From a virus (taxonomy: Duplodnaviria > Heunggongvirae > Uroviricota > Caudoviricetes), in the IMG/VR virus record IMGVR_UViG_2908567220_000002, positions 32,001 to 96,000 of that record: a DNA stretch of 64,000 bases; one strand, written 5' to 3'. Position numbers and translations under genes: made by a program. Numbering within the stretch: the first letter of the stretch is position 1; each line of letters starts with the position of its first letter. Under the pieces are notes generated by a model, which was not told the origin of the DNA, did not search any database, and saw only the letters and a program-made list of their open reading frames with translations. This document shows positions 8,808 through 28,123 of the stretch, one piece after another.

Positions 8808-8847
8808 AAGCCCTCCTGAAAATTACCTCATGACCAGAAATTAACAC

Positions 8848-9924: not shown

Positions 9925-9989
9925 CTCTTCTGATACCGAATCTTTTTACTCACGAGTTGCCGGAAGCGATTCGATATGGCTATTGTCAG

Positions 9990-10666: not shown

Positions 10667-10690
10667 ATCACCCTCACAATGTGAACTTTG

Positions 10691-10721
10691 AGTACATGCT
10701 ATAACAGAACTGACAGTACAT
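10691..10721. promoter_or_regulatory. putative right operator region (AGTACAT repeats)
   Basis: AGTACAT at 10691 and 10715 between divergent cro-like and repressor genes; same motif recurs downstream of repressor. Confidence 0.35.
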
Positions 10722-10745
10722 TCAAGAGCGAATATCATTGAACTT

Positions 10746-11165: not shown

Positions 11166-11240
11166 ACCAGCATAAATCCGGTAGCGCCTTCCTCCGGGTT
11201 TGTGCTTCACTTTATCCCATCTCATTTTTTTACACACAAA

Positions 11241-11281
11241 ATGTACTAAAAGTACTTTACAACAATGAACGCAAAGTACAT
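11241..11281. promoter_or_regulatory. putative left operator region (ATGTACT/AGTACAT)
   Basis: ATGTACTaaaAGTAC palindrome and AGTACAT repeat downstream of repressor. Confidence 0.3.
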
Positions 11282-11459
11282 TATATGCCTGCCACCCACC
11301 CCGCCCCACAGAATGCAGGGCAATACTTCGAGTTACCAGGCAGTGGTCAGGGGGTAAGTAGCCAGCCCGAGGCGTAAGAACATGACGGCAGGGTTCAACT
11401 TTAACTATGCAGCAGGTTTTTGTTCCGCTACCCCGGCGTTAAGGGGAAATGAGGTCAAC

Positions 11460-11615
11460 ATGGATACTATCGATCTTGGCAACAACGAATCTCTGGTATA
11501 CGGCGTGTTTCCCAACCAGGACGGAACGTTCACCGCGATGACGTATGCCAAAAGCAAAACGTTTAAAACCGAATCTGGCGCGCGTCGTTGGTTGGTAAGA
11601 CATTCAGGTGAATAA
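11460..11615 (+). CDS. YdfA/YdaF-like small protein (DUF1391-like)
   Basis: 51 aa MDTIDLGNNESLVYGVFPNQDGTF...; GAGG RBS; paralog at 60240..60392. Confidence 0.55.
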   Translation: MDTIDLGNNESLVYGVFPNQDGTFTAMTYAKSKTFKTESGARRWLVRHSGE

Positions 11616-11616
11616 A

Positions 11617-11763
11617 ATGAACGAAACAGAATTAAAACACGTTATCGCTCTGCTTCTGGAGGATGCAAAACGCCTCCAGCAACTGGAACCAAATGCAGGC
11701 ACTGAAGCCCGCATCTGGCTGGCATTGTACGCTATTGAGTCAGGTCGTGATGATGAAGGTTAA
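11617..11763 (+). CDS. small hypothetical protein (48 aa)
   Basis: MNETELKHVIALLLEDAKRLQQLE...; ATG 1 nt after the upstream stop. Confidence 0.35.
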   Translation: MNETELKHVIALLLEDAKRLQQLEPNAGTEARIWLALYAIESGRDDEG

Positions 11764-12044
11764 GCATCATCTAAGTTTTTTACATAGCGCCCATTAGATT
11801 CGGTAACAAGAACACCGGGATTTTTCTTAACTTTTGAGGCCACTGATTCAGCAAGGTCAGCAACAGATTCTTTGTCTTCATTCTTGCTTGAATATATATA
11901 TTCGGCATTAGGAAGACGGTAGGTGTTCCCTAAAGAGGTTGTAATCGTTCTGGAGAATCCCTTTGCTTCCATTCGTTCATGAAGCTTATCGTAATCAGCG
12001 GAACTGGAATCGCGAAGTTCGATCCTGACTGTAAATTTTGCCAT
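11760..12044 (-). CDS. hypothetical protein
   Basis: track ORF 11760..12056; GGAGG RBS supports start at MAKFTVRIELRD. Confidence 0.45.
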   Translation of the reverse strand: MAKFTVRIELRDSSSADYDKLHERMEAKGFSRTITTSLGNTYRLPNAEYIYSSKNEDKESVADLAESVASKVKKNPGVLVTESNGRYVKNLDDA

Positions 12045-12074
12045 TTTATCCTCCATTTAGGTTCTGGGTTAGAA

Positions 12075-12330
12075 ATGGAGACCAATACGGGGCTACGTGT
12101 GGTCGTGCGCCGGACACGGATAAGAATCCGGCACTGACAGTTTACTGAAAGGATATTTCCCTGAAAAGTCAGGGCATAACACGAAAGCGTACGGCGAAGG
12201 CCTTCACCTATGAGGCTTGTCGTTAATTTCTTCGACCGTGCGCTTCCGGTTGTGGCACTCCGCGAAATGGCGCGGCGGTAAGTATGGCGGGGTTATTCCT
12301 TCCCCCGTTGAGGACACCGGGTTGTCAGGT
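12075..12330. other. conserved structured non-coding region (copy 1)
   Basis: about 250 nt with no ORF of 60 aa or more, multiple inverted repeats (GGTTGTCA...TGACAACC, CCGCGaaatggCGCGG); second copy at 60990..61310. Confidence 0.35.
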
Positions 12331-12626
12331 TGACCATACGCTTAAGTGACAACCCCGCCATAACTCATACTGCTATAGATATATGGGGACTAACCGGAGG
12401 AAAAATGATAGTTCAATGCACAGACGGGAATAATAAGCTGCTCTGGTCATACGATACCGTCAGCCAGAAACACATAATGAATATGACTTTTATAAAGGAC
12501 GGTACTCAACAAAAAATCATTACCGCCCTTGCAAGTGCATTAACTCAGGCGACAAGCCAAATTCTGCTATCTGATAACGTTAATGGAGTATCTGATATTG
12601 GCTCGATGACCGGGAGGGAGTGCTAA
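12330..12626 (+). CDS. hypothetical protein
   Basis: 98 aa ORF; overlaps 3-prime end of convergent ORF 12567..12836; lies where prophage B has dicF. Confidence 0.3.
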   Translation: MTIRLSDNPAITHTAIDIWGLTGGKMIVQCTDGNNKLLWSYDTVSQKHIMNMTFIKDGTQQKIITALASALTQATSQILLSDNVNGVSDIGSMTGREC

Positions 12627-12836
12627 TACAACATTCCAGTAACCCGAGTGGGGCACGGTAATATTGGCAGGGAATCGTTCATAGAAACCGCCGTAATAGG
12701 TAAAACGCCCGCCCCGCTTGAAAGCCTGGTAATTTGAATCATCCATTAATAAAACATTAATCTGGTGTGAACATTGAACCCTGACAAGGTCACCATCATT
12801 CATGTGTTCACGACTATGTATATGGGACATAAACAC
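12567..12836 (-). CDS. hypothetical protein
   Basis: 89 aa ORF convergent with 12330..12626. Confidence 0.3.
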   Translation of the reverse strand: MFMSHIHSREHMNDGDLVRVQCSHQINVLLMDDSNYQAFKRGGRFTYYGGFYERFPANITVPHSGYWNVVLALPPGHRANIRYSINVIR

Positions 12837-13347
12837 TCCTTTTTACTGTGGAAAGCTAAATCATATCACGGTCTATGAAGTAAAAAGTGAATTTCGTGAT
12901 GCGGTGAATGCGGCTCAGCGCACGCAGAACAGTTAAAAACACAAGTGTTATGGGTGAATCATCCGGCGTTAATTGCTAACTGGTTAACGTCACCTGGAGG
13001 CACCAGGCACCGCATCACAAAGTTCACTTAGGTGATGAAAGGTAGAGAAAATGTTGAATGTAGCTATTGAAAACCAGAACGGGTGGAATTATAGTGCACC
13101 TGCACCTCATAAAACGGGTGCCGGGCGTGGAAACCCGATGTTCACTAACGCGCATAACCGCGCTCAGGCGGTTTTTTTATGCGTAATGCACAGCCACATT
13201 CAGATTATGGTGGGACGTGCAGGGCAGCCGCAAGGCTGGCCGGGTTCGTTAGTGACCGGTATTTCCACCCCTGTACGTCTCACCACCCTTATGGTCGTGG
13301 AAAACCTTGGTGGTGAGTTAATCAAATTCACTAACGAGGCTGCTATC

Positions 13348-13902
13348 ATGGCTACTATCCCTACCCTTTCTCAACCTGACGTAACCATCGAAAATGGTCG
13401 CGCTGTCACTACGTCTGTTGCGATCGCCGAGTTCTTTGGCAAACGCCACGACAATGTTATTCAAAAAATAAAATTACTGGATTGCTCCCCTGAATTCACT
13501 GCCCTTAATTTTAAGGTGAGCGAATACACCGACTCAACCGGGCGCAAACTCCCTATGTACCAAATCACCAAAAACGGCTTCGTTTTCCTGGTGATGGGCT
13601 TCACGGGCAAAAAAGCCGCAGCTTTCAAGGAAGCCTACATCGCTGAATTCGATCGCATGGAGGCAGAGTTGTACCAGCTTAATACCACTACCACAGACAA
13701 AATAATTCCTGGTGATGGTCGCACTCTCGTTGTTCACTTCGACGAACGCGGCAATATCAAATTCACCGAAACCGTTCCTGACGGCGCTCTCGTCTGTACT
13801 CTGGATACTTTCCGCTTTTATCTGGAGAAGCAGGGGTGGACTCTTGTAAACAGGAGCGCAATTAAAAATATGACCGTCGAGCAGTTGCTGAGTATTAAAT
13901 AG
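13348..13902 (+). CDS. Rha-family phage regulatory protein
   Basis: Rha-like N-terminal motif VAIAEFFGKRHDNVIQKIK; GAGG RBS before internal Met of track ORF 13051..13902; upstream extension judged non-coding. Confidence 0.6.
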   Translation: MATIPTLSQPDVTIENGRAVTTSVAIAEFFGKRHDNVIQKIKLLDCSPEFTALNFKVSEYTDSTGRKLPMYQITKNGFVFLVMGFTGKKAAAFKEAYIAEFDRMEAELYQLNTTTTDKIIPGDGRTLVVHFDERGNIKFTETVPDGALVCTLDTFRFYLEKQGWTLVNRSAIKNMTVEQLLSIK

Positions 13903-13948
13903 TTTTCTGGAATTTTCTTAATGCGACAAATTTATTAAGGAGATAATT

Positions 13949-14170
13949 ATGATTGCTCATCACTTCGGAACTGATGATATTCCTCGTCAGTGCGTGACTC
14001 CCGGTGATTATGTTATTCATAAAGGAAGAACATATATTGCTTCGGTAAACAATATAAAAAAACACCGGCTCTATATTCGTGATTTTTCCACACAACACTG
14101 TATTAATGAAACCATGATTAAAGTCTTCCTTGATCGTGATGGTTTACCTGTAAAGGCGGAGTCGTGGTGA
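13949..14170 (+). CDS. hypothetical protein
   Basis: 73 aa with strong AAGGAG RBS. Confidence 0.45.
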
Positions 14171-14287
14171 GCTGTAATAAAATAACTACCCCAATACGAC
14201 ATTCAGTTTAATAAATACATCAGATTCGATTCTTATATGCCAGCAATGGCAGTGACTTGTTCACCCCTAAATCTGTAATGAGGTTTA

Positions 14288-16726
14288 TTGATGAGCACGA
14301 ATAAAGAAGTGTTTGCGCTATATTGCGAAGCTAAAAATGACAAGGTCAGAAAGCGTCTCGGTATTAAAGGTGGCTTTTTCTGGATCGAAGCCAAAAAACT
14401 TTCCGTTGCAGTTTCCCGCTGTATTGCCGCTATGGACGATGCTGGCTACGACGAAGATGATTTCAAAAAAACAGTTCGCGTCCATTTGCCTGTTCTAAAT
14501 GACCTGCCACCTGAAGGCGTATTTGATACTGATTTCTGTAACCGTTACGAAAAAGGTGGAGAAGATGGCATCACAATGATGCCGGTACCGTCCAGCAACA
14601 GCGATGAAAACAGTAACGCCGCTAATACTAACGTCAACGGCGAAGACATGATTGAGATTGAGGAGAATATTCTTCTGCCGGTTTCAGGTCAGCTTCTGCC
14701 TGTTAGATGGCTGGCACAGCACGGCAGCGAAAAACCTGTCACGCATGTTTCACGGGATGAACTGCGGGCATTACATAACGCACAGGAAGAAAAACTTCCC
14801 GCCGTTACCGCTCTGGCCATCTCAAATAAAGCAGTGCAACTCGAACCGCTGGAGATTCGGGATTTGTACAAACTGGTGCGGGACACTGACAAAGTTTTTC
14901 CCGCCCCCGTAAATTCAGACCTGGGACTGATGACTTCCTTCATCGAAGCATACCTGGACGCTGACTACACCAATCGCGATCTGCTTACAAAAGAGTGGAT
15001 GAAAGGAAATCATGTTTCGCGAATCAGCCGCACACCATCCGGCGCTAACGCTGGCGGCGGTATTCTTACCGATCGCGGCGAAGGTTTTGTACACGATGAT
15101 GCATCACTGGCGCGCGACGTAGCCACTGGCGTGCTGGCCCGTTCAATGGACGTGGACATTTATAACCTTCATCCGGCACACGCTAAACGCGTCGAGGAAA
15201 TTATCGCTGAAAATAAACCGCCCTTTTCTGTTTTCTTCAGCAAATTCATCACCATGCCGGGCCACAAGGATTTCTCCCGTGCCATCGTGGTTGCCTCCGT
15301 GAAAGAATCACCAGTTGGTATAGAGGCTATGCCCCACCGTGTCACCGAATACCTGAATAAAGTGCTGACTGAAACCGATCATGCCAACCCTGATCCGGAA
15401 ATCGTGGATATTGCCTGCGGTCGCTCCTCTGCCCCGATGCCGCAGCGTGTAACTGAAAAAGAAAAACATGATGAAGAAAAACCGCAACCATCTGGCGCAA
15501 TGGCAGATGAACAGGCAACGGCTGAAACAGTGGAACCGGATGCAACTGAACATCATCCGGACACGCAGCCGGTGGATGCTCAGCCACAGGTGAATTCTGT
15601 TGATGCGAAATATCAGAAACTGCGGGCAGAACTCCATGAAGCTAGGAAAAACATTTCGCCTAAAAATCCTGTCGACGCAAACAAATTACTGGCAGCCTCT
15701 CGCGGAGAATTTGTTGAAGGGATTAGTGACCCGAATGATCCGAAATGGGTTAAGGGGCTCCAGACTCGCGAGTCTTCGAACCAGAATCAACCAGAAGTGG
15801 AACAAACCAAGCCAGAATCGGGACAAAATAGCCAGGATGCACACCAAAATGAACCAAAAACGATACATCCGGAGCCAGCAGCGCAACATGCACAGAAAAA
15901 TCCCTGTAATGTTTGTGGGGAAACTGGCGGGGGCACATGCCCTGACTGTGCCTCAGTAATGGGTGACGCAACTTACCATGAGACATTCTGCGAGGAAGAT
16001 TCAGATGAATCTCAGGAAAAAGCTCCGGAGGAGATGGAAAACCCTGAACATCCGCATCCGGAAAATACTGACAGCAATCAGCATAACAATAGCGGTGATA
16101 AAACTGACAGGACGACAAATTCCTTAATTAATATGCACGGTCATCAGAAAAGAACATCCACCAGCAGAATGTGTCACCATCTGATGATCGACCTTGAAAC
16201 AATGGGAAAAAATCCTGATTCCCCGATTATCTCAATAGGTGCAATATTTTTCGATCCGCAAACCGGAGAGATGGGACCAGAATTTAATAAAACCATCGAT
16301 CTGGAAACTGCTGGCGGAGTCATTGATCGGGACGCGATCAAGTGGTGGCTGAAGCAATCACGCGAAGCGCAATCTGCCATTCTGACCGATGAAATCCCGT
16401 TAGATGATGCACTGCTGCAATTGCGGGAATTTATCGCCGAAAACTCCGGTGAATTGTTTGTTCAGGTCTGGGGAAATGGAGCCAACTTCGACAACGTGAT
16501 TTTGCGCCGTTCATATGAACGGCAGGGTATCCCCTGCCCGTGGCGCTACTACAACGATCGCGATGTACGCACAATCATTGAACTGGGAAAATCCATAGAC
16601 TTCGATGCCAGGACGCCTATTCAATTCGAAGGCATACGCCACAATGCGCTGGATGATGCCCGTCACCAGGCGAAATACGTTTCAGCAATCTGGCAAAAAC
16701 TGATCCCGAATCAGTCTGATTTTTAA
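14288..16726 (+). CDS. phage exonuclease with C-terminal DEDDh 3-prime-5-prime exonuclease domain
   Basis: 812 aa; C-terminal [13 protein letters not shown] and HNALDDA exo motifs; acidic Gln-rich linker with [15 protein letters not shown] Zn-ribbon-like motif; recE position of left operon. Confidence 0.7.
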
Positions 16727-16789
16727 TGTTCAACCCCAGTCGTCGCCCCCAGCTATAGTGGCGGCGACCATGATTAGCGAACGATACTC

Positions 16790-17038
16790 ATGGCAAGACT
16801 TATTCTGCTCACTGAGTGGGCAAAAGAGGAATTCAGCGATCCGGTCCCTACTCCGGGCACGTTAAGTAAATACGCTAAAGCCGGAATGATATTTCCTCTC
16901 CCCAAAAAAGTTGGAAGACACTGGCGAGTGGATCCGCGAGCTCGCTTTGTCGGAATGGTAAACAAGCCGGAGGTGATCGCCACAGATCACCCTGCTTTAA
17001 AGAGGATACTGGAAGATGGCACGCCCGCGAAAATATAA
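16790..17038 (+). CDS. xis: excisionase (Xis-like)
   Basis: 82 aa, lambda Xis-like pattern, overlaps start of int. Confidence 0.6.
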   Translation: MARLILLTEWAKEEFSDPVPTPGTLSKYAKAGMIFPLPKKVGRHWRVDPRARFVGMVNKPEVIATDHPALKRILEDGTPAKI

Positions 17039-18146
17039 AACCGCTGTTCCGGGATTATCTCCGTATTTTGACAAAAGAAATAACAAAGTTTACTGGCGTT
17101 ACAGGCATCCCATCACAGGTAAAAATCATGGACTCGGCAGTATTGACCAGAAACTGGCGGAAACCATTGCAGCAGAAGCGAACAGCCGTCTTGCCAGACA
17201 ACAAATGGAGCAAATGCTCAGTCTGCAGGAGAAAATTATTAGTGATACCGGCGGCGCATCAACCGTTTCCATTTTTCTGAATAATTACAGAAAAATTCAA
17301 CAGGAAAGATATGAGAACGGAGAGATCAAACTCAGCACGCTGAAGCAAAAAGCGGCTCCTCTCAGGGTGTTTGATGAACGTTTTGGAGCCAGGCCGCTAG
17401 ATGCCATAACAGTAAAAGATGTGGTATCGGTGCTGGAAGAATACAAGGCAAAGGGACATAACAGAATGGGACAAATTTTCAGGAAGGTATTGATCGATGT
17501 TTTCCGGGAGGCTCAACAAACGGGTGATGTCCCGCCAGGCTTTAACCCGGCTGAATCGGCAAAAAAACCGCAAGTGCGGATATCAAGACAGCGACTGACT
17601 TTTGATGAGTGGATGATGATTTATAACGCAGCGGAAAAGGATGGTTACTTTTTACAGCGCGGCATGCTGCTGGCACTGATGACGGGCCAGCGTCTTTCGG
17701 ATATTTGCAAAATGCAGTTTTCGGATATCCGGGATGGTTACCTTCATGTCGAACAGCAAAAAACAGGAGCCCGGATAGCCATTCCTCTGGCTCTGCGTTG
17801 CGACAAATTAAATCTTACCCTGGGTGACGTGGTGTCATCCTGTCGTGATTACATCCTTAGTCCGTGGTTATTGCACCATCATCACGCTAAGGGGATGGGT
17901 AAGCGCGGCGGGATGGTTAAACCAGCAACGTTAACAGTCGCATTTAAAAAAGCCCGGGATTCTGTGGATTACAACTGGCGTGCTAATGGCACGCCACCCT
18001 CTTTCCATGAGCAAAGATCTTTATCAGAACGATTGTTCAGAGAACAGGGAATTGATACCAAAATTTTGCTGGGCCATTCGAATCAAAAAATGACCGATGT
18101 TTACAACGATGCACGCGGTAAGGAGTGGAAAAAACTGGTCATTTGA
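17016..18146 (+). CDS. int: tyrosine-type integrase
   Basis: 376 aa; catalytic-domain motifs RLSDI..., HEQRSLSERL, LLGHSNQKMTDVY. Confidence 0.9.
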   Translation: MARPRKYKTAVPGLSPYFDKRNNKVYWRYRHPITGKNHGLGSIDQKLAETIAAEANSRLARQQMEQMLSLQEKIISDTGGASTVSIFLNNYRKIQQERYENGEIKLSTLKQKAAPLRVFDERFGARPLDAITVKDVVSVLEEYKAKGHNRMGQIFRKVLIDVFREAQQTGDVPPGFNPAESAKKPQVRISRQRLTFDEWMMIYNAAEKDGYFLQRGMLLALMTGQRLSDICKMQFSDIRDGYLHVEQQKTGARIAIPLALRCDKLNLTLGDVVSSCRDYILSPWLLHHHHAKGMGKRGGMVKPATLTVAFKKARDSVDYNWRANGTPPSFHEQRSLSERLFREQGIDTKILLGHSNQKMTDVYNDARGKEWKKLVI

Positions 18147-18200
18147 TGACCAGTTTTGCAGAAGAGTTTTGCAGAGATTTTGCAGAGAAAATTAGAAGCG

Positions 18201-18312
18201 GTATCCGGCAGAGAACATAAACACCCACGGATCCAGTCGTACCGCGTCTTTCACGGGGGTTCCATTAAATTTATAGCTGGCGGTTGTGTCGATATCCATG
18301 TACCACACTGGT
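18201..18312 (-). other. phage-borne 3-prime end of ompW (attachment core) at junction between prophage A and B
   Basis: minus-strand translation VWYMDIDTTASYKFNGTPVKDAVRLDPWVFMFSAGYRF* resembles OmpW C-terminus; no upstream ompW coding sequence (in-frame stop). Confidence 0.6.
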
Positions 18313-18854
18313 AGGTTTCAAAAAACACAATAACCAATTGTATTTGAAGCAAAAAAACAAGACTTTGAGATGTTTTTTTGTACCTTTTTTTATGCTTTTA
18401 ACTGTCTGATTTTATTGAAATCTTTTTTAGTTTTGCAGAAGGAATTTTTTACTTGATTGTAACTTTTTCGTTTTTTTGGGGCTAATTGACGCGCAATGCT
18501 GGGCGGGGAGCGCACAGCCAAAAAAACCGAAATTGACCGCTAATTACTGCCAATCATCATCGCTCTGATTGAGCGTAAATCATTCAGGTTATTCAGTTCT
18601 TCCTTCTGCTCTCGCTGACGTCAATAAATCCCATCATTGCGATCAACCTCATCCTTAACCATTGATGCGAGCAGTTCTTCCAGTTTCTGCGCTGACAGCT
18701 TTACCTGGTGATCTTCAGCATCTTCCCGGGCTATTGTGGTTCGCGCAGTGGCTGATTTTGCTGACATCACCACAGGGGGCAGACGGACCATTGAACCATG
18801 GCCTCCGGAACAAATAAGGGCAAAAATAACAACCACTATCGAAAGCTCACAAAC

Positions 18855-19052
18855 TAACCGCAGCACGTTCCTGCATACGACGTGTCTGCGGCATAATCCC
18901 AATGATTACTCCCTGACAGGATTTGCAGGCCACTCAATATCAGGTACAGTTGATGTATCAACACGATTCAACAATACCCGATATTTATTCCATGCCTCCA
19001 GCAACGATCTTTCTTCCTCCGTTGCGATTTCCAGATCTACAGCATCCTGCAG
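18855..19052. repeat. direct repeat copy 1 (tfa 3-prime end plus downstream hairpin)
   Basis: about 90 percent identical by eye to 19905..20087. Confidence 0.6.
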
Positions 19053-19175
19053 TGGCGCAATATACTCACTGAATTCCTGGATGTAGAACTGTGTGGTGAC
19101 GGTCTTCCAGCCATTCGGCTCCTGCTGTATCGAAGCATACCAGGCTATTTCAATATCGCTATGCTGCGGCAGCAT
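18906..19175 (-). pseudogene. tfa: tail fibre assembly protein Tfa, C-terminal fragment
   Basis: 89 aa ORF ending ...[28 protein letters not shown]; lacks Tfa N-terminal half. Confidence 0.55.
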
Positions 19176-19231
19176 TTAACCCCTTGTAATTCATCGCCAT
19201 AATTGATTTAATTCACAAATAAAACTATAAC

Positions 19232-19900
19232 ATGGTGAAATCAATGAAAAAAAACACAGATGATGGGGCTAAAATTTACACACCACTTACCCTAAAGCTT
19301 TATGACTGGTGGGTTTTGGGAGTATCAAATCGGCTTGCATGGGGATGTCCTACAAAGGAACACCTTCTTCCACACTTTCTGGAACATGTAGGTAACAACC
19401 ATCTGGATATTGGTGTTGGAACTGGGTTTTACCTTACTCACGTACCTGAGAGTAGTCTGATATCTTTAATGGATTTGAACGAAGCTAGCCTGAACGCGGC
19501 ATCTACAAGGGCTGGGGAATCAAAAATTAAACATAAAATTAGCCATGATGTTTTTGAACCTTATCCCGCGGCGTTACATGGTCAATTTGATTCCATTTCC
19601 ATGTTTTACCTTCTTCACTGCCTGCCTGGAAATATATCTACAAAAAGCTGTGTAATACGCAATGCGGCGCAGGCCTTAACTGACGATGGAACTCTATACG
19701 GAGCCACAATTCTTGGCGATGGAGTTGTGCACAATAGCTTCGGTCAAAAACTGATGCGCATTTACAATCAGAAAGGCATCTTTTCAAACACAAAAGATTC
19801 CGAAGAAGGCTTAACACATATACTCTCAGAGCATTTCGAGAATGTTAAAACCAAGGTTCAAGGTACTGTAGTAATGTTTTCCGCTTCAGGGAAAAAATAG
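19232..19900 (+). CDS. class I SAM-dependent methyltransferase
   Basis: 222 aa; motif I LDIGVGTGFY, acidic post-I LMDLNE, motif II-like DSISMFYLLHCLP; lies between duplicated tfa fragments. Confidence 0.7.
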   Translation: MVKSMKKNTDDGAKIYTPLTLKLYDWWVLGVSNRLAWGCPTKEHLLPHFLEHVGNNHLDIGVGTGFYLTHVPESSLISLMDLNEASLNAASTRAGESKIKHKISHDVFEPYPAALHGQFDSISMFYLLHCLPGNISTKSCVIRNAAQALTDDGTLYGATILGDGVVHNSFGQKLMRIYNQKGIFSNTKDSEEGLTHILSEHFENVKTKVQGTVVMFSASGKK

Positions 19901-19904
19901 CATC

Positions 19905-20087
19905 CAACCGCAGCACGTTCTTGCTTAAGACGTGCTGCGGCATAATCCCAATGATTACTCCCTGACAGGATTTGCAGGCCACTCAATATCAGGTGCAGTT
20001 GATGTATCAACACGGTTCAGCAACACCCGATACTTTTTCCAGGCTTCCAGCAATGAGGTTTCTTCCTCCGTTGCGATTTCCAGCTCA
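19905..20087. repeat. direct repeat copy 2 (tfa 3-prime end plus terminator hairpin)
   Basis: matches 18855..19052; contains CAGCACGTtcttgcttaagACGTGCTG hairpin with T-run on minus strand. Confidence 0.6.
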
Positions 20088-20089
20088 AC
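19955..20089 (-). pseudogene. tfa: tfa 3-prime fragment without start codon
   Basis: in-frame minus-strand translation ...[44 protein letters not shown] directly after stf stop, no initiator Met. Confidence 0.5.
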
Positions 20090-20137
20090 AACAGTCTGAA
20101 CGTACCGGGAACAGCCTCCTTCAGAGCTTGAAGGATA

Positions 20138-23100
20138 TCAATGTTCGCTTCCTGTTAACTGCCGGACAAGTGCAACCAGTTCGCTTACCTGATTTTCCAG
20201 AGTGCTGATCCGGGTGTCTGCTGTTGCCAGATTTTCACGTAGCGTTGTGTTTTCCTCTTCCAGCGCGGTAACGCGATCATCTGTTTCACGGGCGACCTGA
20301 ACAAGTAAACCCGTCACGGCGGCGTAGTCAACATTAAGATAGCGCGTTTCTTCGCGTAGCTCGTTGCCGTCAACGGTCGGGCCTTGCAACTCTTCACCAT
20401 AATGAGTAAACGATCCCACAGCTTCTGGTATCGCCTCCATTACTTCCTGTGCAATAACGCCAGCATAAGGCATCCCGTTTTCCCTGAGCGTGTAGGTGTA
20501 TCCGTTCATTTTACGGATTGCTTTCGTCGCGTCGCTGATAACGAGAATATCGTCTTTAAGGTCGCGGTCTGATGACTGATTCAGCGTTGTGCAATTAATA
20601 GCGCCATTTACATCAAACAACTGGCCTGCTGACGTTTTTTGCGCATAAAACAGATACGCAGCAGACGTTCCAACCTCAAAAACGTTTTGTCGAGTACTGG
20701 AACCCCACACCCTGACAGAAAACGGCAGTTCTGCATTGCCTGAGTTCTGTAAAACAAAACGATTACCAGTCCCTGATTGCTTTGTAAGGGTTAAATCAAC
20801 GGTTGAGTTAACCTCATTCTTGTTGATAGTGAGCGCCTGCGCTGTAGCCCCGTTAACAGCACCTGTTTTGAGTTGAACCGCGCCGTCATTACCATTTAAC
20901 AGTATCTCAGCTCCGCTAAAGAAATTTTTTAGCGACAGCATCTTACTTACGCCGACTGATGAACCCAACGCCCACGCGAGAGAATTACCGGTGCTATCAA
21001 ACCCACGTACAAAGCAATCCATTTTGCTATAGTCTGACGTGCTTCCAAGGACATCAATTCGCCCTCCGCCAGATTTTACCGGACTAGATGTGGTTAACGA
21101 CCTGACAGTTATATCCTGATTCCATCCGGAAACAACAACCTGACTCCACGCTGTCCAGTTTCCATTAACAACAAAGCGAACGTATATACGTTTTGTGTCG
21201 CTGTTAATCAGCGTTTGCATGTTCGCATAATCTGAATCCCTAACCTTACGAGTCGACTCTACACGGAGCAAAAAGTTACCGGTTACACCGTCAGGCTTGT
21301 TGGTGATATTTGCACCACCTCCAGAGGATGGACAACTATAGTATTTAACCGCCCCGGCATCTGACCTGATGGTCAGGTTGTTAAGATCAACCTTCTGGCC
21401 GCCAATGTTTTCAGGCTCGATGGCTCCTGCTATCCCGGCACTGAACGTAGCAGCGGCTGAAAACGCTGTCGTACCTTTGAAAGCCAGTTGACCACCAATC
21501 GTTAATCCCTTGTCGAGTTTCGCTTGCGTGATCAATTTGCTGTTTTGTTTCTGATCAGGACTCTCGCCAAAAGCCAGATCCCCATTAGTATCAATTCCAA
21601 GATACTTTTGGTTCACGTTGTCTAACTTAAACCCAATGGACACATTTTCAGAAGAACCGGAACGCGTTAAAACCAACGGCGTGTGCTGTACTCCATAGAT
21701 GCTGAGCGTAGTTGCCGATGAGTCAGTGTCGGTATTTGCAATCTCAATCGTTCTGCTTTTAATTTTATACGCTACTGTGAGATCACGGACTTCAACCCTC
21801 CCGTCGTGACGAACAACAAGATCCCCTCCTGATGTCCCCCCTGCTGTCTTTGCCCTGATGCGAACTTCGCCAAGCGAATCAGTGTTAGGACCAGCATAGA
21901 TTATGCCGCGCTCTGTGTTATCGCCAGTATAAAACCGCAAAGCGGTGACTCCACTGTCTGCCCGCAGGAAGACTGACGGTGTACCTTTTTTGATTGTCAA
22001 GTCACCGGTCATTGTATCGCCGGTTTTTTTTACCTGCGCATCGTTCGTTACGTTGCCAAGTCCAACATCCGATTTCGACGGCTTGTTTGCCGAGCCGTAT
22101 AGCTCATTGACGCTAAAAGTCCCGTTGTTAAGCCGGGCATCGGTGCCGGCATAGATCTTAATCTTCGCGGTTGAGTAGTCGATATTGATCGCTGACCACG
22201 TATCGCCGCACCGCGAGAATATACCAGAACCGTGGCTATAAATGGTCGCCGTGCTTCCGGTCGGCTTATCACCGCGCCAGAAATGACCACCTTTGTCACG
22301 CAGAGCTTTTAAGATCTCTACATCGCTCATCTTGCCGTTTGTTGATATCCCGCTACCGCCAAGACCGAAAGCGCCTGTAAGCATAGCATTAGAAAGACCC
22401 AAATCTGCTTTAGTCGGCTTGTTTAACTGGTCGTAAATCCTTACAACGGGGCTTTCAACATATCCAGAAGGCGCGGCGGTTTGCTTAACAAATCCGTCTG
22501 GAATGTATAATTCCGTGCGTGCCGTCTGCGCCAGTACCGCAACCTTTGCGCCGTTGATAAATGCGCGCTGGAAGGCCCAAACCTCAATAAAGCCATCACC
22601 TTTAACCAGGCCGTAACGCATCTGGTTGTTATCGGTCAGCCCGGTTGACCCTAAGCGGCGTATACTCAGATGACGAGAAACATTATCCGCACTAAGCAAA
22701 GAAGGCATACCGCGCGCCGAGATCTCGATAAAGTCAATGTTTCCGTAAGGGGAGCCGTAGTTACCAGCGTTAGTAACCATTAGCGTTACATGGCAATTGC
22801 CGCTTCCGGGATCGGAAAGTTTCGCGATCTTTATGTAAAAAGACTCATTACCAGTAACAACGGGCCAATCGTATTGCGTCATCGGGCTGACGAGTCCCCC
22901 GACCTTGTCGAGATATTCTTTCGCCTTGTTCTCTGACGCTTTAGCGTTGGTTTCGCTGACCTTTGCTGCTGCCTCACTATTTTTCGCGTTGGTTTCTGAT
23001 TTTTTGGCTGCTGTCGCGGAGTTTGCCGATGCAGTTTGTGAGTCTGCTGCCGCCTGTGCGCTGTTATCCGCATTCGTCTCAGACGTTTTTGCGGCCTTCG

Positions 23101-23917
23101 CGGAATTTCCTGCCGCCGTTGCCGAGGAAGCTGCACTACTGGCACTTGATGATGCGTTCGTTTCTGATGATTTCGCTGCCTCTTTTGAGGCCGCCGCATC
23201 CCGGGATGAGGTGGCAGCTTCTGACGCTTTCGTGGTCGCGGTGGATGCAGAAGTGGCTGCAGATTTTTGTGACGCTGCAGCATTCGTTTCTGACGTTTTC
23301 GCCGCACCGGCACTGGTGGCTGCCGCGCTTTTTGAAGACTCTGCGGCGGCAGCACTTTTTAATGCTTCAGTGGCCTTTGTTGATGCCGTTCCTGCGCTGG
23401 AAAAAGCCTCCTGAGCCGACGTCGCGGCCTGTCCGGCTGACGTTCTGGCTGCGCGTGCTGAGTCTGCAGCATCAGTCGCATGGGTTGCCGCCTCACGGGC
23501 TGATGTGCCGGCATCGCTGGCTGACTTCTTCGCGGCTGCCGTGTTCTGTGCCACTGCGGACGCGTTACGCGCCACCTCTGCCACCATCAGTTCAAAGCGG
23601 CGCAGTGCCTCCGGACGGGCATCATCCTCCGTCATGGCACCGAGAAAATCATTCAGCGTACCCGGTTGTGAGTCTTCATACACGGTGATGGTCCCGGCAT
23701 GCGATGGCGGGAAGCCTTCCACCAACAGAATAACGCTGTACTGACCGTACTCAACGTCCATGCTGTAACGCCCTGCTTCATCCGGATTTTCAGATGCCAC
23801 CGTGTTCACCACCACCGTGGTGCTGTTACGTTTTGCTTTCAGCTGGATTGTGCAGTTCTGTACCGGTTTACCTGCACCGTCTTTCAGTACACCTGAAATC
23901 TTTACTGCCATATTCAC
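20138..23917 (-). CDS. stf: side tail fibre protein with C-terminal intramolecular chaperone (S74-like) domain
   Basis: 1259 aa; N-terminus MAVKISGVLKDGAGKPVQNCTIQLKA... matches lambda Stf; Ala/Ser-rich repeats; C-terminal DLKDDI...NGYTYTLRENG... chaperone-like region. Confidence 0.85.
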   Translation of the reverse strand: MNMAVKISGVLKDGAGKPVQNCTIQLKAKRNSTTVVVNTVASENPDEAGRYSMDVEYGQYSVILLVEGFPPSHAGTITVYEDSQPGTLNDFLGAMTEDDARPEALRRFELMVAEVARNASAVAQNTAAAKKSASDAGTSAREAATHATDAADSARAARTSAGQAATSAQEAFSSAGTASTKATEALKSAAAAESSKSAAATSAGAAKTSETNAAASQKSAATSASTATTKASEAATSSRDAAASKEAAKSSETNASSSASSAASSATAAGNSAKAAKTSETNADNSAQAAADSQTASANSATAAKKSETNAKNSEAAAKVSETNAKASENKAKEYLDKVGGLVSPMTQYDWPVVTGNESFYIKIAKLSDPGSGNCHVTLMVTNAGNYGSPYGNIDFIEISARGMPSLLSADNVSRHLSIRRLGSTGLTDNNQMRYGLVKGDGFIEVWAFQRAFINGAKVAVLAQTARTELYIPDGFVKQTAAPSGYVESPVVRIYDQLNKPTKADLGLSNAMLTGAFGLGGSGISTNGKMSDVEILKALRDKGGHFWRGDKPTGSTATIYSHGSGIFSRCGDTWSAINIDYSTAKIKIYAGTDARLNNGTFSVNELYGSANKPSKSDVGLGNVTNDAQVKKTGDTMTGDLTIKKGTPSVFLRADSGVTALRFYTGDNTERGIIYAGPNTDSLGEVRIRAKTAGGTSGGDLVVRHDGRVEVRDLTVAYKIKSRTIEIANTDTDSSATTLSIYGVQHTPLVLTRSGSSENVSIGFKLDNVNQKYLGIDTNGDLAFGESPDQKQNSKLITQAKLDKGLTIGGQLAFKGTTAFSAAATFSAGIAGAIEPENIGGQKVDLNNLTIRSDAGAVKYYSCPSSGGGANITNKPDGVTGNFLLRVESTRKVRDSDYANMQTLINSDTKRIYVRFVVNGNWTAWSQVVVSGWNQDITVRSLTTSSPVKSGGGRIDVLGSTSDYSKMDCFVRGFDSTGNSLAWALGSSVGVSKMLSLKNFFSGAEILLNGNDGAVQLKTGAVNGATAQALTINKNEVNSTVDLTLTKQSGTGNRFVLQNSGNAELPFSVRVWGSSTRQNVFEVGTSAAYLFYAQKTSAGQLFDVNGAINCTTLNQSSDRDLKDDILVISDATKAIRKMNGYTYTLRENGMPYAGVIAQEVMEAIPEAVGSFTHYGEELQGPTVDGNELREETRYLNVDYAAVTGLLVQVARETDDRVTALEEENTTLRENLATADTRISTLENQVSELVALVRQLTGSEH

Positions 23918-23975
23918 CCCACAAAAAAGCCCGCCTGAACCGGCGGGCTGTCATAACACTGTGTTACCTGGCTAA

Positions 23976-24575
23976 TCAGAACTTATAACCAACACCCACG
24001 ATGAACCCGTCAGTGCGCCAGTCGCCACTGCCGGAGCCTTCATAAGCGACATCAACGGCCACGGATTCGGTCGGGTTAAACTGCACGCCAGCCCCCCACG
24101 CCAGAGACATGTTGCTGTGGCGACCGTCATCACTTCCGGTCAGCACATCGTGCGTTTTCCCCTTGTTGTCAGTTACGCGGAGATAATCCCCGGAGAAAGT
24201 CGACACACGGCTGTAAGCCATACCCGCCATCGCATACGCGCTGAACCATTCATTCACGCGCACAGACGGCCCCGCCATCACGCTGAACCAGCGGTTACGC
24301 ACGGAATCTTCATGCCAGCGGGTATCGCTGTAACGGGTCAGCTGGCGATTCTTGTCTCCTGCATAGCTGAATGACGTCACCAGCCCCAGCGTATCCGTAA
24401 ACTCATAACGGTATTTCACGTTAATCCCGTTCAGATTATCGCTGCCGGGAGCGTTCGTACGGGCATGAAGATACCCTGCGCTCAGTGTGGCCTGCTGCTC
24501 AGACGCCCATGCAGGCGCACCGGATACGGCCAGACAGATGGCTGCGGACAAAATGGCTGCACAAACTTTACGCAT
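23976..24575 (-). CDS. lom: Lom/Ail family outer membrane protein
   Basis: 199 aa with signal peptide and beta-barrel pattern ending GYKF, lambda lom position. Confidence 0.85.
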   Translation of the reverse strand: MRKVCAAILSAAICLAVSGAPAWASEQQATLSAGYLHARTNAPGSDNLNGINVKYRYEFTDTLGLVTSFSYAGDKNRQLTRYSDTRWHEDSVRNRWFSVMAGPSVRVNEWFSAYAMAGMAYSRVSTFSGDYLRVTDNKGKTHDVLTGSDDGRHSNMSLAWGAGVQFNPTESVAVDVAYEGSGSGDWRTDGFIVGVGYKF

Positions 24576-24643
24576 AATTACCTCTCGCTTTTCTGCAATA
24601 AAAAAGGCGCCAGAAATGGCGCCCGCATATGGGTTATGAAAAT

Positions 24644-27600
24644 TCAGCTAATCGTGATACCTGCTGTGGATTTCTTCATCACCACAACCAGCAAATCACT
24701 GATACTGGCTGTGGGATACCAGTCATTTACCAGCCACGCTGATACCGAAAACTCCAGCGTCATGTGACCGCGACCAGCAGGCATATCAATAACACCTGTA
24801 TAAACCAGCGTATTATCCAGCGCGGTACGGTTATAAATTTCAGCACCGTTTTTCTTCACTATCAGGCGGCATGACGAATAAATATCGTTATTCTCCCGCT
24901 CATGTTTAGCGCCACGAAACGCCACCGCGGGAATAACAATCTGCCGGTCAAACGGCTGATCGTCATAAACCCTGACGGTAATGGTCCCTGATGGCCACCG
25001 CTCCGGTGCACGGGAGTCCCGGGGGAAAGCTTTGCCCACTGTTTTAACGAGATCGCCTTCAATCTGGTTCGCAGACAGTTTTCCCAGAACCCGACAGTTT
25101 TCATTTATCGTGACATTGTTGAGCGTCCCGGCGTTCGCATTCACACTGCCACTGATATCCGCATTTTTCGCCGTCAGTCGCCCGTCCGGTGTCAGGGAAA
25201 ATGCCGGTGGATTTCCACCGCTGGTAATGGTGGGGGCCGTCAGGCGTTTCAGGAACACGTCGTTCATGAATATCTGATCGCCCTGACCAACAAACATCGG
25301 TTTTGTGTTGCCATTCGCAGGATTAACCATCGCAATCCTGTCCGCCGCCAGCAGCACCTGACTCTGCATGCCGTCAGGGGTGTTCTCAATACCGGCACCA
25401 ATACCCGCGATATAAAGGCGTCCGTCCTGCATCTGCTGCAGCTTCACAGCCCACATGCTGTTCAGGTTATTATTTGTATCAACCTGAACCTTCTGTATCT
25501 GCTGAATTGCCGCACTCTGGTCTTCCAGTTTCTTATTGACGGTCTGCGTGATTTCATTGCTGACATCCGTAATGGACGTCCTGATTTCAGCCAGGTCAGG
25601 CGCAAGCTGACCGTTATCAATCTGCGTCCACAGCTCCTGAGCCAGATGGGTTTTCCCTATCTCGCCTTTGAAAAAATCCAGATAGCCGGATGCGTCATCA
25701 CTCGGCTGACCAACAGCCTCCACGAATGCCGATTTGCCAACGGTGTTCACACTGCGAACGTAAAAATAATAATTATGGCCCGGTTTGATATTGATACTGG
25801 CGGCTATCCAGTACAACGCCGTACCAAGATAGCGTGCTGTGGTTTCAACCTGCCTGATATCCGCAATCCGCTTTTCCGAGAACCAGAACTCAAACTGTAC
25901 CGTCGGATCATAAACCGCAAGATGCGGCGTGGCGGTTATCTGAAAATAGCCCGGCGTCAGCTCAATCCGCGACGGCGCTGCCGGTGCGGCAATCCGGAAC
26001 GATACCGACGCCGGATCGCCCTGCTGCCCCCACGCATTTACTGCCCGGACTGTCAGCCTGTAGTTCCCCAGAGCCAGTTGTGTGAAGCGGTAAGTGGTTT
26101 CCGTCGTCCGGGCCGTGCTGACCAGCCGCTCACTGCCGTCATCCGCTGCCACGGTCAGGCGAAGCAGGAAGCTCACGCCCTTCACCACCTTCGGCGTGTC
26201 CCAGCGGGCCAGCACCTGGTATTCCCCGCTGTCTGCGGTGACTTCTGCGGTCAGATGCTGCACTGCTGGCGGCGTGACACCATTCACCGTGCCGCTCTGG
26301 TCGCCGTCAAAGTGCGCCCCGTTATCCACGATGGCCTCTTTTTCCGGTACATGCTGCACGGCGGTGATGGCATACGTGCCGTCATCGTTCTCACGGATAC
26401 TCACGCAGCGGAACAGGCGCTGGCGCAGCGTCGGCAGCTTCAGCCCCCATACGCTGTATCCGGCAACGCCGTCAGGAACACGGCTCACTTTTACCTTCAC
26501 GCCGTCGGTGACGGACTGGACCTCCACGCCGACCGGATTGCCACTTCCGTCAACCAGGCTTATCAGCGTGGTACCGGAGGATGGCAGCGTGATTTCACGG
26601 TCGAGCGTCAGCGTCCGGGTCTGGCTGTTCACCGCCAGCACGCGCCCGCCGGTGCTGATACCGGCATAGTCATCATCGCAGATTTCAATGACATCGCCCG
26701 GTACATGGCGAAGCCCTTCAGCACCCACGCTGAAGTCCACGGTCTGCGTTTCCAGCAGCTCCGTTTTAATCAGCCACAGCCCGGCGCGGTGTGCCTGCCC
26801 CCGGCTGGTACAGCCAAAGGCATCCATCTTCGTGACGTTACGACCGTAACGGGCAATGGCCTGCGAGTCCTCCACAAGCTCTGTTGCCGTCTCCCAGCCG
26901 TTATCCGGGTCAATCCAGTTCACTTCAACGGCATTATGGCGGTCTTTCAGGGCGCTGAAGCTGTAGCGGAATGGTGCGCCATCATCCGGCATCACCACAT
27001 TACTGCGGTTATAGGTCCACACCTTATCCGATGGTCGGTCCTGCACGAACGTCAGCGTCTGCCCGTTCCATACCGGCATACAGCGCATCGCCGAGCAGAA
27101 ATCACTGAGCACATCCCACGCCTTACGTTGTGTGGTCAGGTACGCATTACAGGTGATGCGCGGCTCCGTACCGCCAAAGCCGTCCGGCACCGACTGGTCA
27201 CAATGCTGGCCGATGACATACAGCGCCCATTTGTCCACATCCGCCGCACCAAGACGTTTCCCCATGCCGTAGCGCGGATGGGTCAGCATATCCCACAGAC
27301 ACCAGGCCATGTTGTTGCTGTATGCTGGCTTAAACGTTCCGTCCCAGATACCGCTGTATTGCCGCGTCTGCGGGTTATAGTTCGACGGCACCTGCAGAAT
27401 GCGCCCGTGCAGATGATAATTACGGCTCACCTGCTGGCTGCCGAACTGCTCCGAATCCACCTGCACGCCGACCAGTGCCGTGTTCGGGTAGCACTGTTTC
27501 ACATCGATGATTTCGGTGTATGACGACCAGAGCGTTTTGTTCTGCAGCTGGTCTGTGGTGCTGTCCGGCGTCATCCTGCGCATCCGGATATTAAACGGGC

Positions 27601-28123
27601 GCGGCGGCAGGTTACCCACCACCACCGAGGCCAGATACTGCGAGGTGGTTTTGCCCTTAATGGTGATGTCTTTTTCCGTCACCCAGCCACCATTACGCTG
27701 GATCTGAACCAGCAGGCGGACTTCCGACGGATTCCTGTCCCCCTTTGAGGTGGTTTCCACCAGTGCCTGCACGCCGAAGGTAAAACGCAGTCGGTCAATG
27801 TTTGCCGACGTGATGGTCCGGGTGATCGGCGTGTCGTATTTCACTTCCGTACCCAGCACCGTCTCGGAGCCGGAGGATTCAAATCCCTCCGGCGGTGTCT
27901 GCTCCTGCTCACCGGCCCGGAACACCACCGTGACGCCGGAGATGTTGGTATTCCCCTCACTGTCCAGCACCGGCGTACTGTTCAGCAGCACGCTTTTTAA
28001 TCCATCCACCGGACCTTCAATCGGCCCTTCGCTGATGGCATCGATCACACTCAGCAACTGCGTGGACTTCAGGTTGTCCTTCGCTTCGCGCGGAGTATGC
28101 CCCTTACTGCTGCCTTTACCCAT
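24644..28123 (-). CDS. J: tail tip host specificity protein J
   Basis: 1159 aa, N-terminus [24 protein letters not shown]..., lambda J synteny. Confidence 0.9.

Follow-up and report, generated by a model that had tools for sequence, protein, structure and literature searches.

Remnants of tail-fibre assembly genes flank an intact ybcY-family methyltransferase gene at the probable right end of a lambdoid prophage

The region downstream of stf, the side tail fibre gene, in the window (the whole 64-kb stretch of DNA analysed) is very probably the right end of a lambdoid prophage at ompW, in which 3' remnants from successive module exchanges are stacked together with one intact cargo gene. The arrangement itself is already known: tfaD-ybcY-tfaX of Escherichia coli K-12 has long been annotated, and here the first chaperone gene has been shortened by a fibre swap. 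The features of the locus are as follows.

18192..18317, minus strand: 3' fragment of ompW
18540..18809, minus strand: remnant of a DUF4376-domain gene (C-terminal part), interrupted by a stop codon
18856..19052: repeat copy A, comprising coding sequence of the tfa C-domain (18906-19052) and 50 nt of 3' flank with hairpin A
18858..18891: hairpin A, in copy A
18906..19175, minus strand: distal ORF, 89 aa, chimeric, corresponding to K-12 tfaX (PHROG 2341)
19176..19231: divergent spacer of 56 nt between the methyltransferase gene and the distal ORF
19232..19900, plus strand: class I SAM-dependent methyltransferase gene, orthologue of K-12 ybcY, intact
19906..20101: repeat copy B, which includes the proximal tfa remnant
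19908..19940: hairpin B, with a stem of 11-14 bp
19955..20101, minus strand: proximal tfa remnant, the last ~48 codons, encoding the conserved C-terminal domain, without a start codon
20084..23153, minus strand: host-range cassette replaced relative to an O104:H4 prophage (the part of stf from codon ~256 onwards and the 37-nt spacer)
20102..20137, minus strand: spacer of ~37 nt that separates the tfa remnant from the stop codon of stf, as read from the sequence
20138..23917, minus strand: stf, intact, encoding a side tail fibre of 1259 aa

Results

Side tail fibre and proximal tfa remnant

The Stf protein matches phage_tail_N (E 6.6e-72) and carries in its C-terminal part a Peptidase_S74 domain (PF13884, residues 1116-1167, nt 20417-20572; E 8.1e-12, 45.7 bits against a cutoff of 22), an intramolecular chaperone of the endosialidase/T5 pb1 type that is followed by a coiled coil. 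PGAP names the orthologous gene product 'pyocin knob domain-containing S74 family peptidase'. The initial annotation had read the fibre end as a chaperone-like domain with no intact tfa behind it, and both statements held. Searching the 64-kb window by tblastn with Tfa queries of 194 and 187 aa, we failed to find any full-length Tfa and recovered two C-terminal pieces only, matching residues 137-194 and, for the proximal remnant, 147-194 of the 194-aa protein. Tfa combines a variable N-terminal fibre-binding domain with a conserved C-terminal oligomerisation domain (PMC9608196). Both fragments retain the C-terminal domain and lack the fibre-binding domain of the full-length protein (~190 aa), and with that domain missing both are most likely non-functional as chaperones. 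Judging by its family, the S74-type fibre would be cleaved autoproteolytically once trimerised and would need no separate Tfa.

The proximal frame (19955-20137, minus strand) matches Caudo_TAP (PF02413) with an E value of 1.5e-20 over profile positions 86-130 of 131. As had been noted for the copy beside stf, it has no start codon: neither ATG nor GTG occurs in frame, and an internal TTG alone would give 32 aa. The translatable ORF expected of Tfa directly after stf is thus lacking, and PGAP treats the remnant as a pseudogene 'missing N-terminus'. The remnant is in frame with the TGA of stf, and in the spacer between them, at 20115-20122, GAAGGAGG resembles a Shine-Dalgarno sequence but is orphaned, as no start codon follows. 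When aligned with an intact tfa, the homology of the proximal copy ends at about 20083-20087, a point on which the earlier description is corrected.

Direct repeats and hairpins

Two direct repeats, each made of a tfa 3' end and a hairpin, had been proposed, and they were recovered by both a repeat search and a MAFFT alignment. The alignment gave contiguous similarity of ~195 nt at ~90% identity between 18856-19052 (copy A) and 19906-20101 (copy B), and the repeat search returned two blocks, 18886-19049/19935-20098 (164 nt, 90%) and 18856-18884/19906-19934 (29 nt, 90%), parted by a 1-nt indel. Similarity of this length and degree is far beyond what chance can account for. That the repeats are tfa 3' ends is supported by Caudo_TAP matches in both copies, and the hairpins were confirmed by RNA folding. 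Hairpin A folds with -18.8 kcal/mol (z -3.0) and hairpin B with -25.1 kcal/mol on the plus and -28.5 kcal/mol on the minus strand (z -4.9 and -4.4, respectively). Both lie directly 3' of their respective tfa stop codons, and hairpin B is placed between the convergent ends of the proximal remnant and the methyltransferase gene, for both of which it is likely to be a transcription stop or an RNA-stabilising element. The two hairpins probably still end or stabilise transcripts, albeit their role as terminators is uncertain because they lack canonical U-tracts.

In the 43 codons shared by the repeats, 10 codons differ, seven of them synonymously and three non-synonymously. As most differences are synonymous, they fit divergence as parts of working genes. 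Judged by sequence comparison, copies A and B are two tfa alleles rather than a fresh duplication, because they are ~10% diverged from each other, whereas for each of them the positional counterpart in other phages is 97-99% identical.

The same differences, together with strong homology at the protein level, bear on whether the repeats could be two copies of a small-RNA gene (Rfam IS009, RF02111, with a weak match to CssrB) instead of remnants of a protein gene, which we regard as extremely improbable. IS009 aligns at 18949-19152 (minus strand, 112.5 bits) and 19998-20198 (minus strand, 95.1 bits) and CssrB at the hairpin (33.7 bits), but the CssrB score is sub-threshold and both IS009 scores fall below the gathering threshold of 117 bits. 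Full-score IS009 matches in K-12 (tfaD) and PhiR26_1 sit within the tfa coding sequence, so the family model is the tfa 3' coding region itself, and the small-RNA reading was rejected on these grounds.

Duplicated tfa/stf 3' sequences beside fibre genes also recall the invertible segments Mu G, P1 C and e14 P, which have inverted repeats and an adjacent invertase (Gin, Cin and Pin, respectively). In the window, however, the repeats are direct and the locus contains no invertase gene, and an invertible segment was likewise rejected.

Methyltransferase gene

The plus-strand gene had been called a class I SAM-dependent methyltransferase from its LDIGVGTG motif, and profile scores and fold agree with that assignment. 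The protein scores above the Pfam cutoffs of Methyltransf_12 (37.5 against 30), Methyltransf_23 (29 against 27), Methyltransf_25 (27.7 against 27) and Methyltransf_11 (24.6 against 21.2). Motif I corresponds to residues 58-65; D59, G61, G63, G65 and D81 are invariant in 38 homologues, as are all residues of the SAM-binding motifs. Both the GxGxG of motif I and the acidic residue ending strand 2 that characterise class I enzymes are present, and the alternating beta/alpha fold with a seven-stranded sheet is that of the class I Rossmann type. The probable start is M5 (19244), which corrects the length from 222 to 218 aa, because all 38 homologues share M5 and the match of the protein to PHROG 2132 runs from end to end (E 3.9e-157, positions 1-218 of 218). 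This full-length match and the synteny with K-12 ybcY, which also lies between tfa 3' ends, place the protein in the YbcY/PHROG 2132 family.

We dropped the possibility of a DNA methyltransferase or a defence gene. No DNA methyltransferase family of Pfam or NCBIfam matched the protein, and PADLOC gave no match to it; motif IV reads FDSISMFYLLHCLPG in place of the catalytic (D/N/S)PP(Y/F), and the single domain of 218 aa has no target-recognition domain. The top structural neighbours are all small-molecule, lipid or tRNA-base methyltransferases, and the enzyme would act on a small molecule or a lipid, not on DNA. The PDB gave no narrower substrate, phmmer finding matches at E ~1e-3 only (JHAMT, UbiG), and NCBIfam offered as clues only matches far below threshold (CpaM, RquA, PmtA). 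In Salmonella, Enterobacter and Erwinia, the gene has homologues (56-68% identity) that stand singly on the chromosome, and their neighbours, which are unrelated, non-phage and non-conserved, gave no hint of a substrate either. In the literature we found no functional study of ybcY, tfaX or WP_000240999, only a promoter/H-NS listing and a mention of no phenotype for the K-12 pseudogene.

The divergent spacer upstream of the gene contains two sigma-70-like matches, both on the plus strand, TTGATT-17-TATAAC (19203-19231) and TTAACC-16-CATAAT (19176-19203); shuffled sequence yields such matches at least as often. The former, which we located in the window by sequence, is given for ybcY (a pseudogene in K-12) in a genomic SELEX list of K-12, where the ybcY/tfaX spacer has a site for the RpoD holoenzyme in vitro and is bound by H-NS (PMC3946193). 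The methyltransferase gene may thus have a sigma-70 promoter of its own, from which it would be read in the direction opposite to the late operon, and would probably be silenced by H-NS.

The gene occurs in 3799 of the 5426 complete E. coli genomes surveyed, with at least 99% identity in 3285 records. In this ~70% of complete genomes, the sequence of the ybcY-family methyltransferase is near-invariant and the gene always stands beside host-range genes.

Distal ORF and the end of the prophage

The initial annotation took both flanking fragments for duplicated tfa, which does not apply to the whole of the distal ORF. Its start and first ~35 codons (19071-19175) match an unrelated small phage gene of the phrog_3893 type (residues 3-37, E 3.3e-7), which supplies the ATG and an AAGGGG ribosome-binding site, and a TAA stop lies immediately upstream of the ATG. 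Codons ~31-89 are the Tfa C-terminal domain (Caudo_TAP, E 1.7e-24, profile positions 75-130 of 131), Tfa PHROGs matching residues 29-87. K-12 tfaX has the same N-terminus, and Klebsiella phage Kp4882-3 carries a 79-aa ORF that shares it.

The distal ORF may have some function, because it is intact in many genomes, is equipped with an ATG and a ribosome-binding site and has its own PHROG, number 2341, which it matches at full length (E 6e-61). It is attractive to speculate that the divergent promoter drives TfaX as a stand-alone Tfa C-domain, which either aids fibre trimerisation in general or interferes with the Tfa multimers of competing phages. A promoter on the tfaX side has been proposed from genomic SELEX (PMC3946193), oligomerisation is mediated by the Tfa C-domain (PMC9608196), and the frame is open here and in many genomes, including the compared locus L001. 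Nevertheless, we consider a working product very unlikely: the ORF is broken in diverse ways in viable phages and prophages (K-12 carries a nonsense codon and 2G7b a frameshift, and in PhiR26_1 and Turner the C-terminus has been replaced), no fibre-binding domain is present, and PGAP annotates a pseudogene.

Two compared loci, L001 and L016 (the latter from an O104:H4 prophage), are 97-98% identical here. The DUF4376 label comes from PGAP pseudogenes in these two near-identical loci, mapped by colinear alignment, while the ORF itself matched nothing in Pfam or NCBIfam. The ompW fragment, whose translation ends ...DPWVFMFSAGYRF, is annotated in both loci as 'OmpW family, missing N-terminus' next to yciE. 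It represents the attachment site and the end of the stf-carrying prophage, and the homology among the window, L001 and L016 begins at 18190.

Related phages and the order of events

K-12 DLP12 (b0561-b0563) has the same gene order and orientations and is 96.7% identical over 18929-20100. It differs in that ybcY is a pseudogene and tfaX carries a nonsense codon, whereas the methyltransferase gene of the window is intact; moreover, K-12 tfaD is a longer ORF with an N-terminus from a terminase gene, in contrast to the 48 codons of tfa that abut the S74 fibre here. The ompW prophage of O104:H4 2011C-3493, PhiR26_1, 2G7b and ev243 share the right end of the window (98.3% identity over 18190-20083), namely an identical methyltransferase protein (WP_000240999.1), a distal tfa pseudogene, a DUF4376 pseudogene and the ompW fragment. 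In the members of this group whose fibre is of the lambda type (PhiR26_1 and O104:H4), however, stf is directly followed by a complete 194-aa tfa, where the window has the S74 fibre and a remnant.

mEp460 and Ayreon have the same stf 3' end, the 37-nt spacer with its orphan ribosome-binding site and the same remnant junction (95% over 19978-20500). The former lacks the methyltransferase gene and continues instead with a DinI-like gene and int; in the latter, a deletion has left no more than the final 33 nt of the gene as a scar. The junction of an S74-type stf with the tfa remnant was found in 788 of the 5426 genomes.

These comparisons bear on the proposal that a single event put the methyltransferase gene into or at the 3' end of one tfa, duplicated ~190 bp and thereby destroyed tfa. 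Direct repeats around a cargo gene do look like the outcome of such a capture, and the window has no intact tfa. Nevertheless, PhiR26_1 and O104:H4 have an intact 194-aa tfa upstream of the methyltransferase gene and the distal fragment, and hence capture and truncation of tfa are separate events. In addition, the repeats are closer to their positional counterparts elsewhere than to each other, the 5' part of the distal ORF is not tfa, and mEp460 has the junction without the methyltransferase gene. We consider one capture very unlikely; the recombination scar seen by the initial annotation stands as far as a layout produced by recombination is concerned, and the single capture that reduced tfa to two duplicated fragments does not.

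Instead of one capture, we favour successive exchanges. An older module, composed of the tfa 3' end, the hairpin, the antisense methyltransferase gene and the chimeric phrog_3893::tfa-C ORF, normally lies downstream of a complete tfa. This module (window 18951-20100) is in circulation in lambdoid phages of E. coli, PhiR26_1, 2G7b, Turner and DLP12 sharing it at 97-99% identity, with differing flanks and with breakpoints inside the tfa 3' sequence. In phage Turner, a DNA invertase gene lies between the methyltransferase gene and tfa as a separate insertion.

The fibre cassette was defined by comparison with the O104:H4 prophage, to which the window is 98.3% identical over 18190-20083 and 88-90% over 23154-25000, with nothing alignable between; correspondingly, the Stf proteins align over residues 3-258 only. 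At the same locus, that prophage has another C-terminal part of stf and the first two thirds of tfa. In this account, a cassette with the S74-ended Stf was swapped in for the 3' part of stf and the first two thirds of tfa, by a left crossover in the conserved N-terminal region of stf near 23153 and an illegitimate right junction within tfa at ~20084-20100, which left the startless remnant of 48 codons. This order of recombination events is deduced from a handful of compared loci.

Discussion

Because the Tfa C-terminal domain is conserved and the N-terminal domain variable, the ~150 nt at the tfa 3' end and the hairpin are near-identical DNA across very different fibres, and could therefore provide a right-hand homology anchor for swaps of host-range cassettes made of the stf C-terminal and tfa N-terminal parts. 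The breakpoints point to the tfa 3' end as such an anchor.

The methyltransferase gene is similar to the morons of lambdoid phages. The lambda morons lom and bor, examples of the moron concept of Hendrix, are outer-membrane or lipoprotein virulence factors. Like them, the methyltransferase gene is a single extra gene of deviant G+C content (41%, against 50% for the window) that is present or absent between similar phages, being absent from mEp460 and deleted in Ayreon at the same junction, and it is found where the late region ends, next to conversion genes such as lom and ompT. It differs from lom and bor in encoding a cytoplasmic-type small-molecule methyltransferase without a known phenotype. 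The gene would be a moron, AT-rich, of chromosomal enterobacterial origin and expressed from the prophage.

The structure of the locus alone matters little, as it is textbook lambdoid mosaicism that K-12 annotation already records and that PGAP has annotated across thousands of genomes. It is nevertheless a clean worked example of how each cassette exchange leaves a layer of 3' remnants (tfa', the tfa'' chimera and DUF4376'), which may help those who engineer or annotate tail-fibre modules. Among the cargo genes of E. coli prophages, the methyltransferase gene is one of the most widespread, and its substrate presents a cheap and well-defined gap. One unlikely possibility is that the ybcY-family methyltransferase is a true lysogenic-conversion enzyme, acting on an envelope lipid, a quinone or a small metabolite, and that the free Tfa C-domain ORF, expressed divergently out of the same spacer, is a decoy against the fibre assembly of incoming phages. 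If the enzyme genuinely has this role, the prophage would alter the physiology of its host or the susceptibility of the host to other phages.

Organisation of the tail-fibre end

The locus represents the tail-fibre end of a lambdoid prophage, where J, lom and stf (side tail fibre gene) follow one another on the minus strand.

Features of the tail-fibre end
24644-28123, minus strand, J
23976-24575, minus strand, lom
20138-23917, minus strand, stf
20102-20140, minus strand, stf stop codon and the 37-nt spacer to the tfa remnant, with a strong orphan Shine-Dalgarno-like GAAGGAGG (20115-20122) and no start codon behind it
19906-20101, direct repeat 3' of stf, stf-side copy
19232-19900, plus strand, methyltransferase ORF of 222 aa with LDIGVGTG, between the repeats
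18906-19175, minus strand, distal ORF of 89 aa, its ATG preceded by AAGGGG and an in-frame TAA
18856-19052, direct repeat 3' of stf, distal copy
~18540-18809, 3' fragment of a DUF4376 gene
18192-18317, ompW' attachment-site fragment

A repeat search and alignment showed the repeats to be ~90% identical with one 1-nt indel. Each comprises the last ~48 codons of tfa (tail-fibre assembly gene) and, in a 3' flank of 50 nt, a stable hairpin (by RNA folding, -25 kcal/mol and z -4.9 in the stf-side copy, -19 kcal/mol and z -3.0 in the distal one), and the C-terminal part of Pfam Caudo_TAP matches both (E 1.7e-24 for the distal copy, 1.5e-20 for the stf-side one). The initial annotation, which described tfa 3' ends with hairpins around a class I SAM-dependent methyltransferase, next to a fibre with an intramolecular-chaperone domain, was right in all essentials: the intervening protein passed four Pfam methyltransferase models, and Pfam places Peptidase_S74 at Stf residues 1116-1167. 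As it also stated, the stf-side tfa copy is startless, carrying neither ATG nor GTG, and no intact tfa follows stf; full tfa is absent from the entire 64-kb window. The repeats could instead be regarded as small-RNA genes (Rfam IS009), but their scores of 112.5 and 95.1 bits fall below the threshold of 117. The full-score match sits inside K-12 tfaD and PhiR26_1 tfa, so that the IS009 model corresponds to the tfa 3' coding region.

The DUF4376 fragment constitutes a third remnant, lying between the distal tfa fragment and ompW', and the prophage end is therefore a stack of 3' remnants left by successive replacements. The stretch between ompW' and the DUF4376 remnant (18310-18620) is very AT-rich (36% G+C), includes a 15-nt inverted repeat (18465-18479/18518-18532) and may represent an att arm containing sites for a recombinase or IHF.

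The neighbouring prophage at ompW

At ompW, two lambdoid prophages lie one behind the other in the window (1-18146 and 18190-64000), the left one represented by its early region and the second by its tail end from 18190 rightwards. Tandems of an Stx2a phage and PPompW at this site are described in public records.

Features of the left prophage
40-1853, minus strand, two-gene block downstream of the Q-like gene
1853-2410, Q-like antiterminator
4837-6331, plus strand, eukaryote-type Ser/Thr protein kinase (Pkinase E 1.4e-31) and adjoining PP2C-type phosphatase (E 1.4e-10), early region
14288-16726, exonuclease VIII fused to a 3'-5' exonuclease
16790-17038, xis
17016-18146, PPompW-type integrase
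early region, DUF968, Ea22 and Rha/Ash genes

The two-gene block probably encodes an AbiL-type abortive-infection system carried by the prophage: one product, an AAA_15 ATPase of 426 aa, scores E 9.6e-26 against the PADLOC AbiLi model, and the adjoining 177-aa ORF has no family match.

Prevalence of the arrangement

The repeat-methyltransferase-repeat arrangement was known before and is very widespread. Positions 18929-20100 are 96.7% identical to the tfaD-ybcY-tfaX segment of the K-12 cryptic prophage DLP12, where ybcY, on the opposite strand, is annotated as a pseudogene. Of 5426 complete E. coli genomes, 1268 contain at least 80% of 18600-20300; in this region PGAP annotates a class I SAM-dependent methyltransferase together with three pseudogenes, two of tfa and one of DUF4376. 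The methyltransferase gene alone occurs in 3799 of the 5426 genomes, in up to four copies per genome and at ≥99% identity in 3285 records, and the identical 222-aa protein heads a database cluster of 6589 members.

The first 78 residues of K-12 'TfaD' (5535-6098 of the K-12 locus, L002) match a terminase-region ORF of the window (42498-42713) at 64% identity, and K-12 tfaD is therefore itself the product of a deletion that joined a packaging gene to tfa, rather than a native full-length Tfa.

Origin of the layout

The initial annotation attributed the layout to a single capture of cargo with duplication of the tfa 3' end. This reading was partly right: the layout is a recombination product, but duplication at cargo arrival is contradicted by the relatives that carry intact tfa. 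In PhiR26_1 the order is J, lom, stf, complete tfa (194 aa), methyltransferase and distal tfa fragment; the O104:H4 2011C-3493 prophage, at the same ompW site, shows the same order, after which come the DUF4376 pseudogene and ompW', and its methyltransferase shares a protein accession with that of the window. The module thus normally lies downstream of an intact tfa. The window and the O104:H4 prophage are 98.3% identical over 18190-20083 and 88-90% over 23154-25000, with nothing alignable in between, and the Stf proteins align across their first ~256 residues only. This gap indicates that an S74-ended fibre cassette (20084-23153) replaced the C-terminal part of stf together with the initial two thirds of tfa. 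The resulting stf::tfa-remnant junction, which also speaks against single capture as it exists in phage mEp460 without any methyltransferase, is a circulating module in its own right (788 of 5426 genomes). The tfa remnant of 60 codons shares its reading frame with the stf stop TGA. The orphan GAAGGAGG of the spacer is probably the ribosome-binding site of the gene that followed the fibre in the donor phage; this junction recurs in mEp460 and Ayreon.

Furthermore, segment 18951-20100 is found at 97-99% identity in PhiR26_1, 2G7b, Turner and DLP12 with different flanks, and its homology breakpoints on both sides fall inside tfa 3' sequence. The window repeats are ~10% apart, yet each is nearly identical to the same-position copy of other phages, and among their 43 common codons seven differ synonymously and three non-synonymously. 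The repeats are therefore two tfa alleles joined by recombination rather than a duplication dating from the cargo's arrival. An invertible tail-fibre segment fails as an explanation, since the repeats are direct and the locus lacks an invertase.

Tfa combines a variable, fibre-binding N-terminal domain with a conserved helical C-terminal domain that drives trimerisation (PMC9608196), and the tfa 3' end is therefore conserved DNA beside a hypervariable cassette. We infer that it serves as a natural crossover anchor, which would explain why the same stretch recurs among phages. In phage Turner (L005, 3991-5745), a ~1.7-kb insert, which encodes a DNA invertase along with several small ORFs, separates the post-methyltransferase hairpin from the tfa 3' end; the same boundary has therefore accepted another module there.

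The distal chimeric ORF

Residues 3-37 of the distal ORF match phrog_3893, a 79-aa family of annotated function unknown with a complete member that, in Klebsiella phage Kp4882-3, adjoins a UmuD-like gene; only residues ~31-89 derive from Tfa. The whole chimera corresponds to PHROG 2341, the counterpart of K-12 TfaX. Its decay in phages that are viable makes a role as a functional free Tfa C-domain less likely. The decay differs among relatives: the ORF is interrupted by a nonsense codon in K-12 and shifted out of frame in 2G7b, and in PhiR26_1 and Turner its C-terminus is replaced. This argues that the ORF is under no consistent selection.

The methyltransferase

Started at M5, the methyltransferase matches PHROG 2132 (218 positions, annotated function unknown) end to end, and M5 is invariant among 38 homologues; the true start is thus likely 19244. 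A promoter scan shows sigma-70-like motifs in the 56 nt that separate the gene from the distal ORF. The K-12 ybcY/tfaX spacer was bound by RpoD holoenzyme and H-NS in genomic SELEX, and TTGATT-17-TATAAC is listed there for ybcY (PMC3946193). In the window this motif (19203-19231) abuts the annotated ATG, further supporting the start at 19244.

The gene has 41% G+C against 50% for the window. Salmonella, Enterobacter and Erwinia carry homologues of 56-68% identity as single genes on the chromosome, in surroundings that are unrelated and not of phage type, which suggests a captured enterobacterial housekeeping or accessory gene. In phage Ayreon (L014, 2440-2600), a deletion scar retains only the last 33 nt of the gene fused to its upstream spacer, followed by a truncated 32-aa phrog_3893-like ORF in place of the chimeric tfa ORF; one E. 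coli genome likewise matches over 36 nt only.

Sequence matches to solved structures and NCBIfam were marginal, and the structural neighbours, of which none stands out, are methyltransferases acting on small molecules, quinones, phospholipids and natural products (11-21% identity). A literature search found no functional study of ybcY-type methyltransferases; a K-12 ybcY mutant, in which the allele is a pseudogene, had no phenotype in one Hha-toxicity screen. A DNA methyltransferase was considered and rejected (no family match, DPPY-type motif, target-recognition domain or PADLOC match). The reading we favour for this very widespread prophage enzyme is that of a putative H-NS-tempered, prophage-expressed moron, predicted to methylate a lipid or another small molecule.
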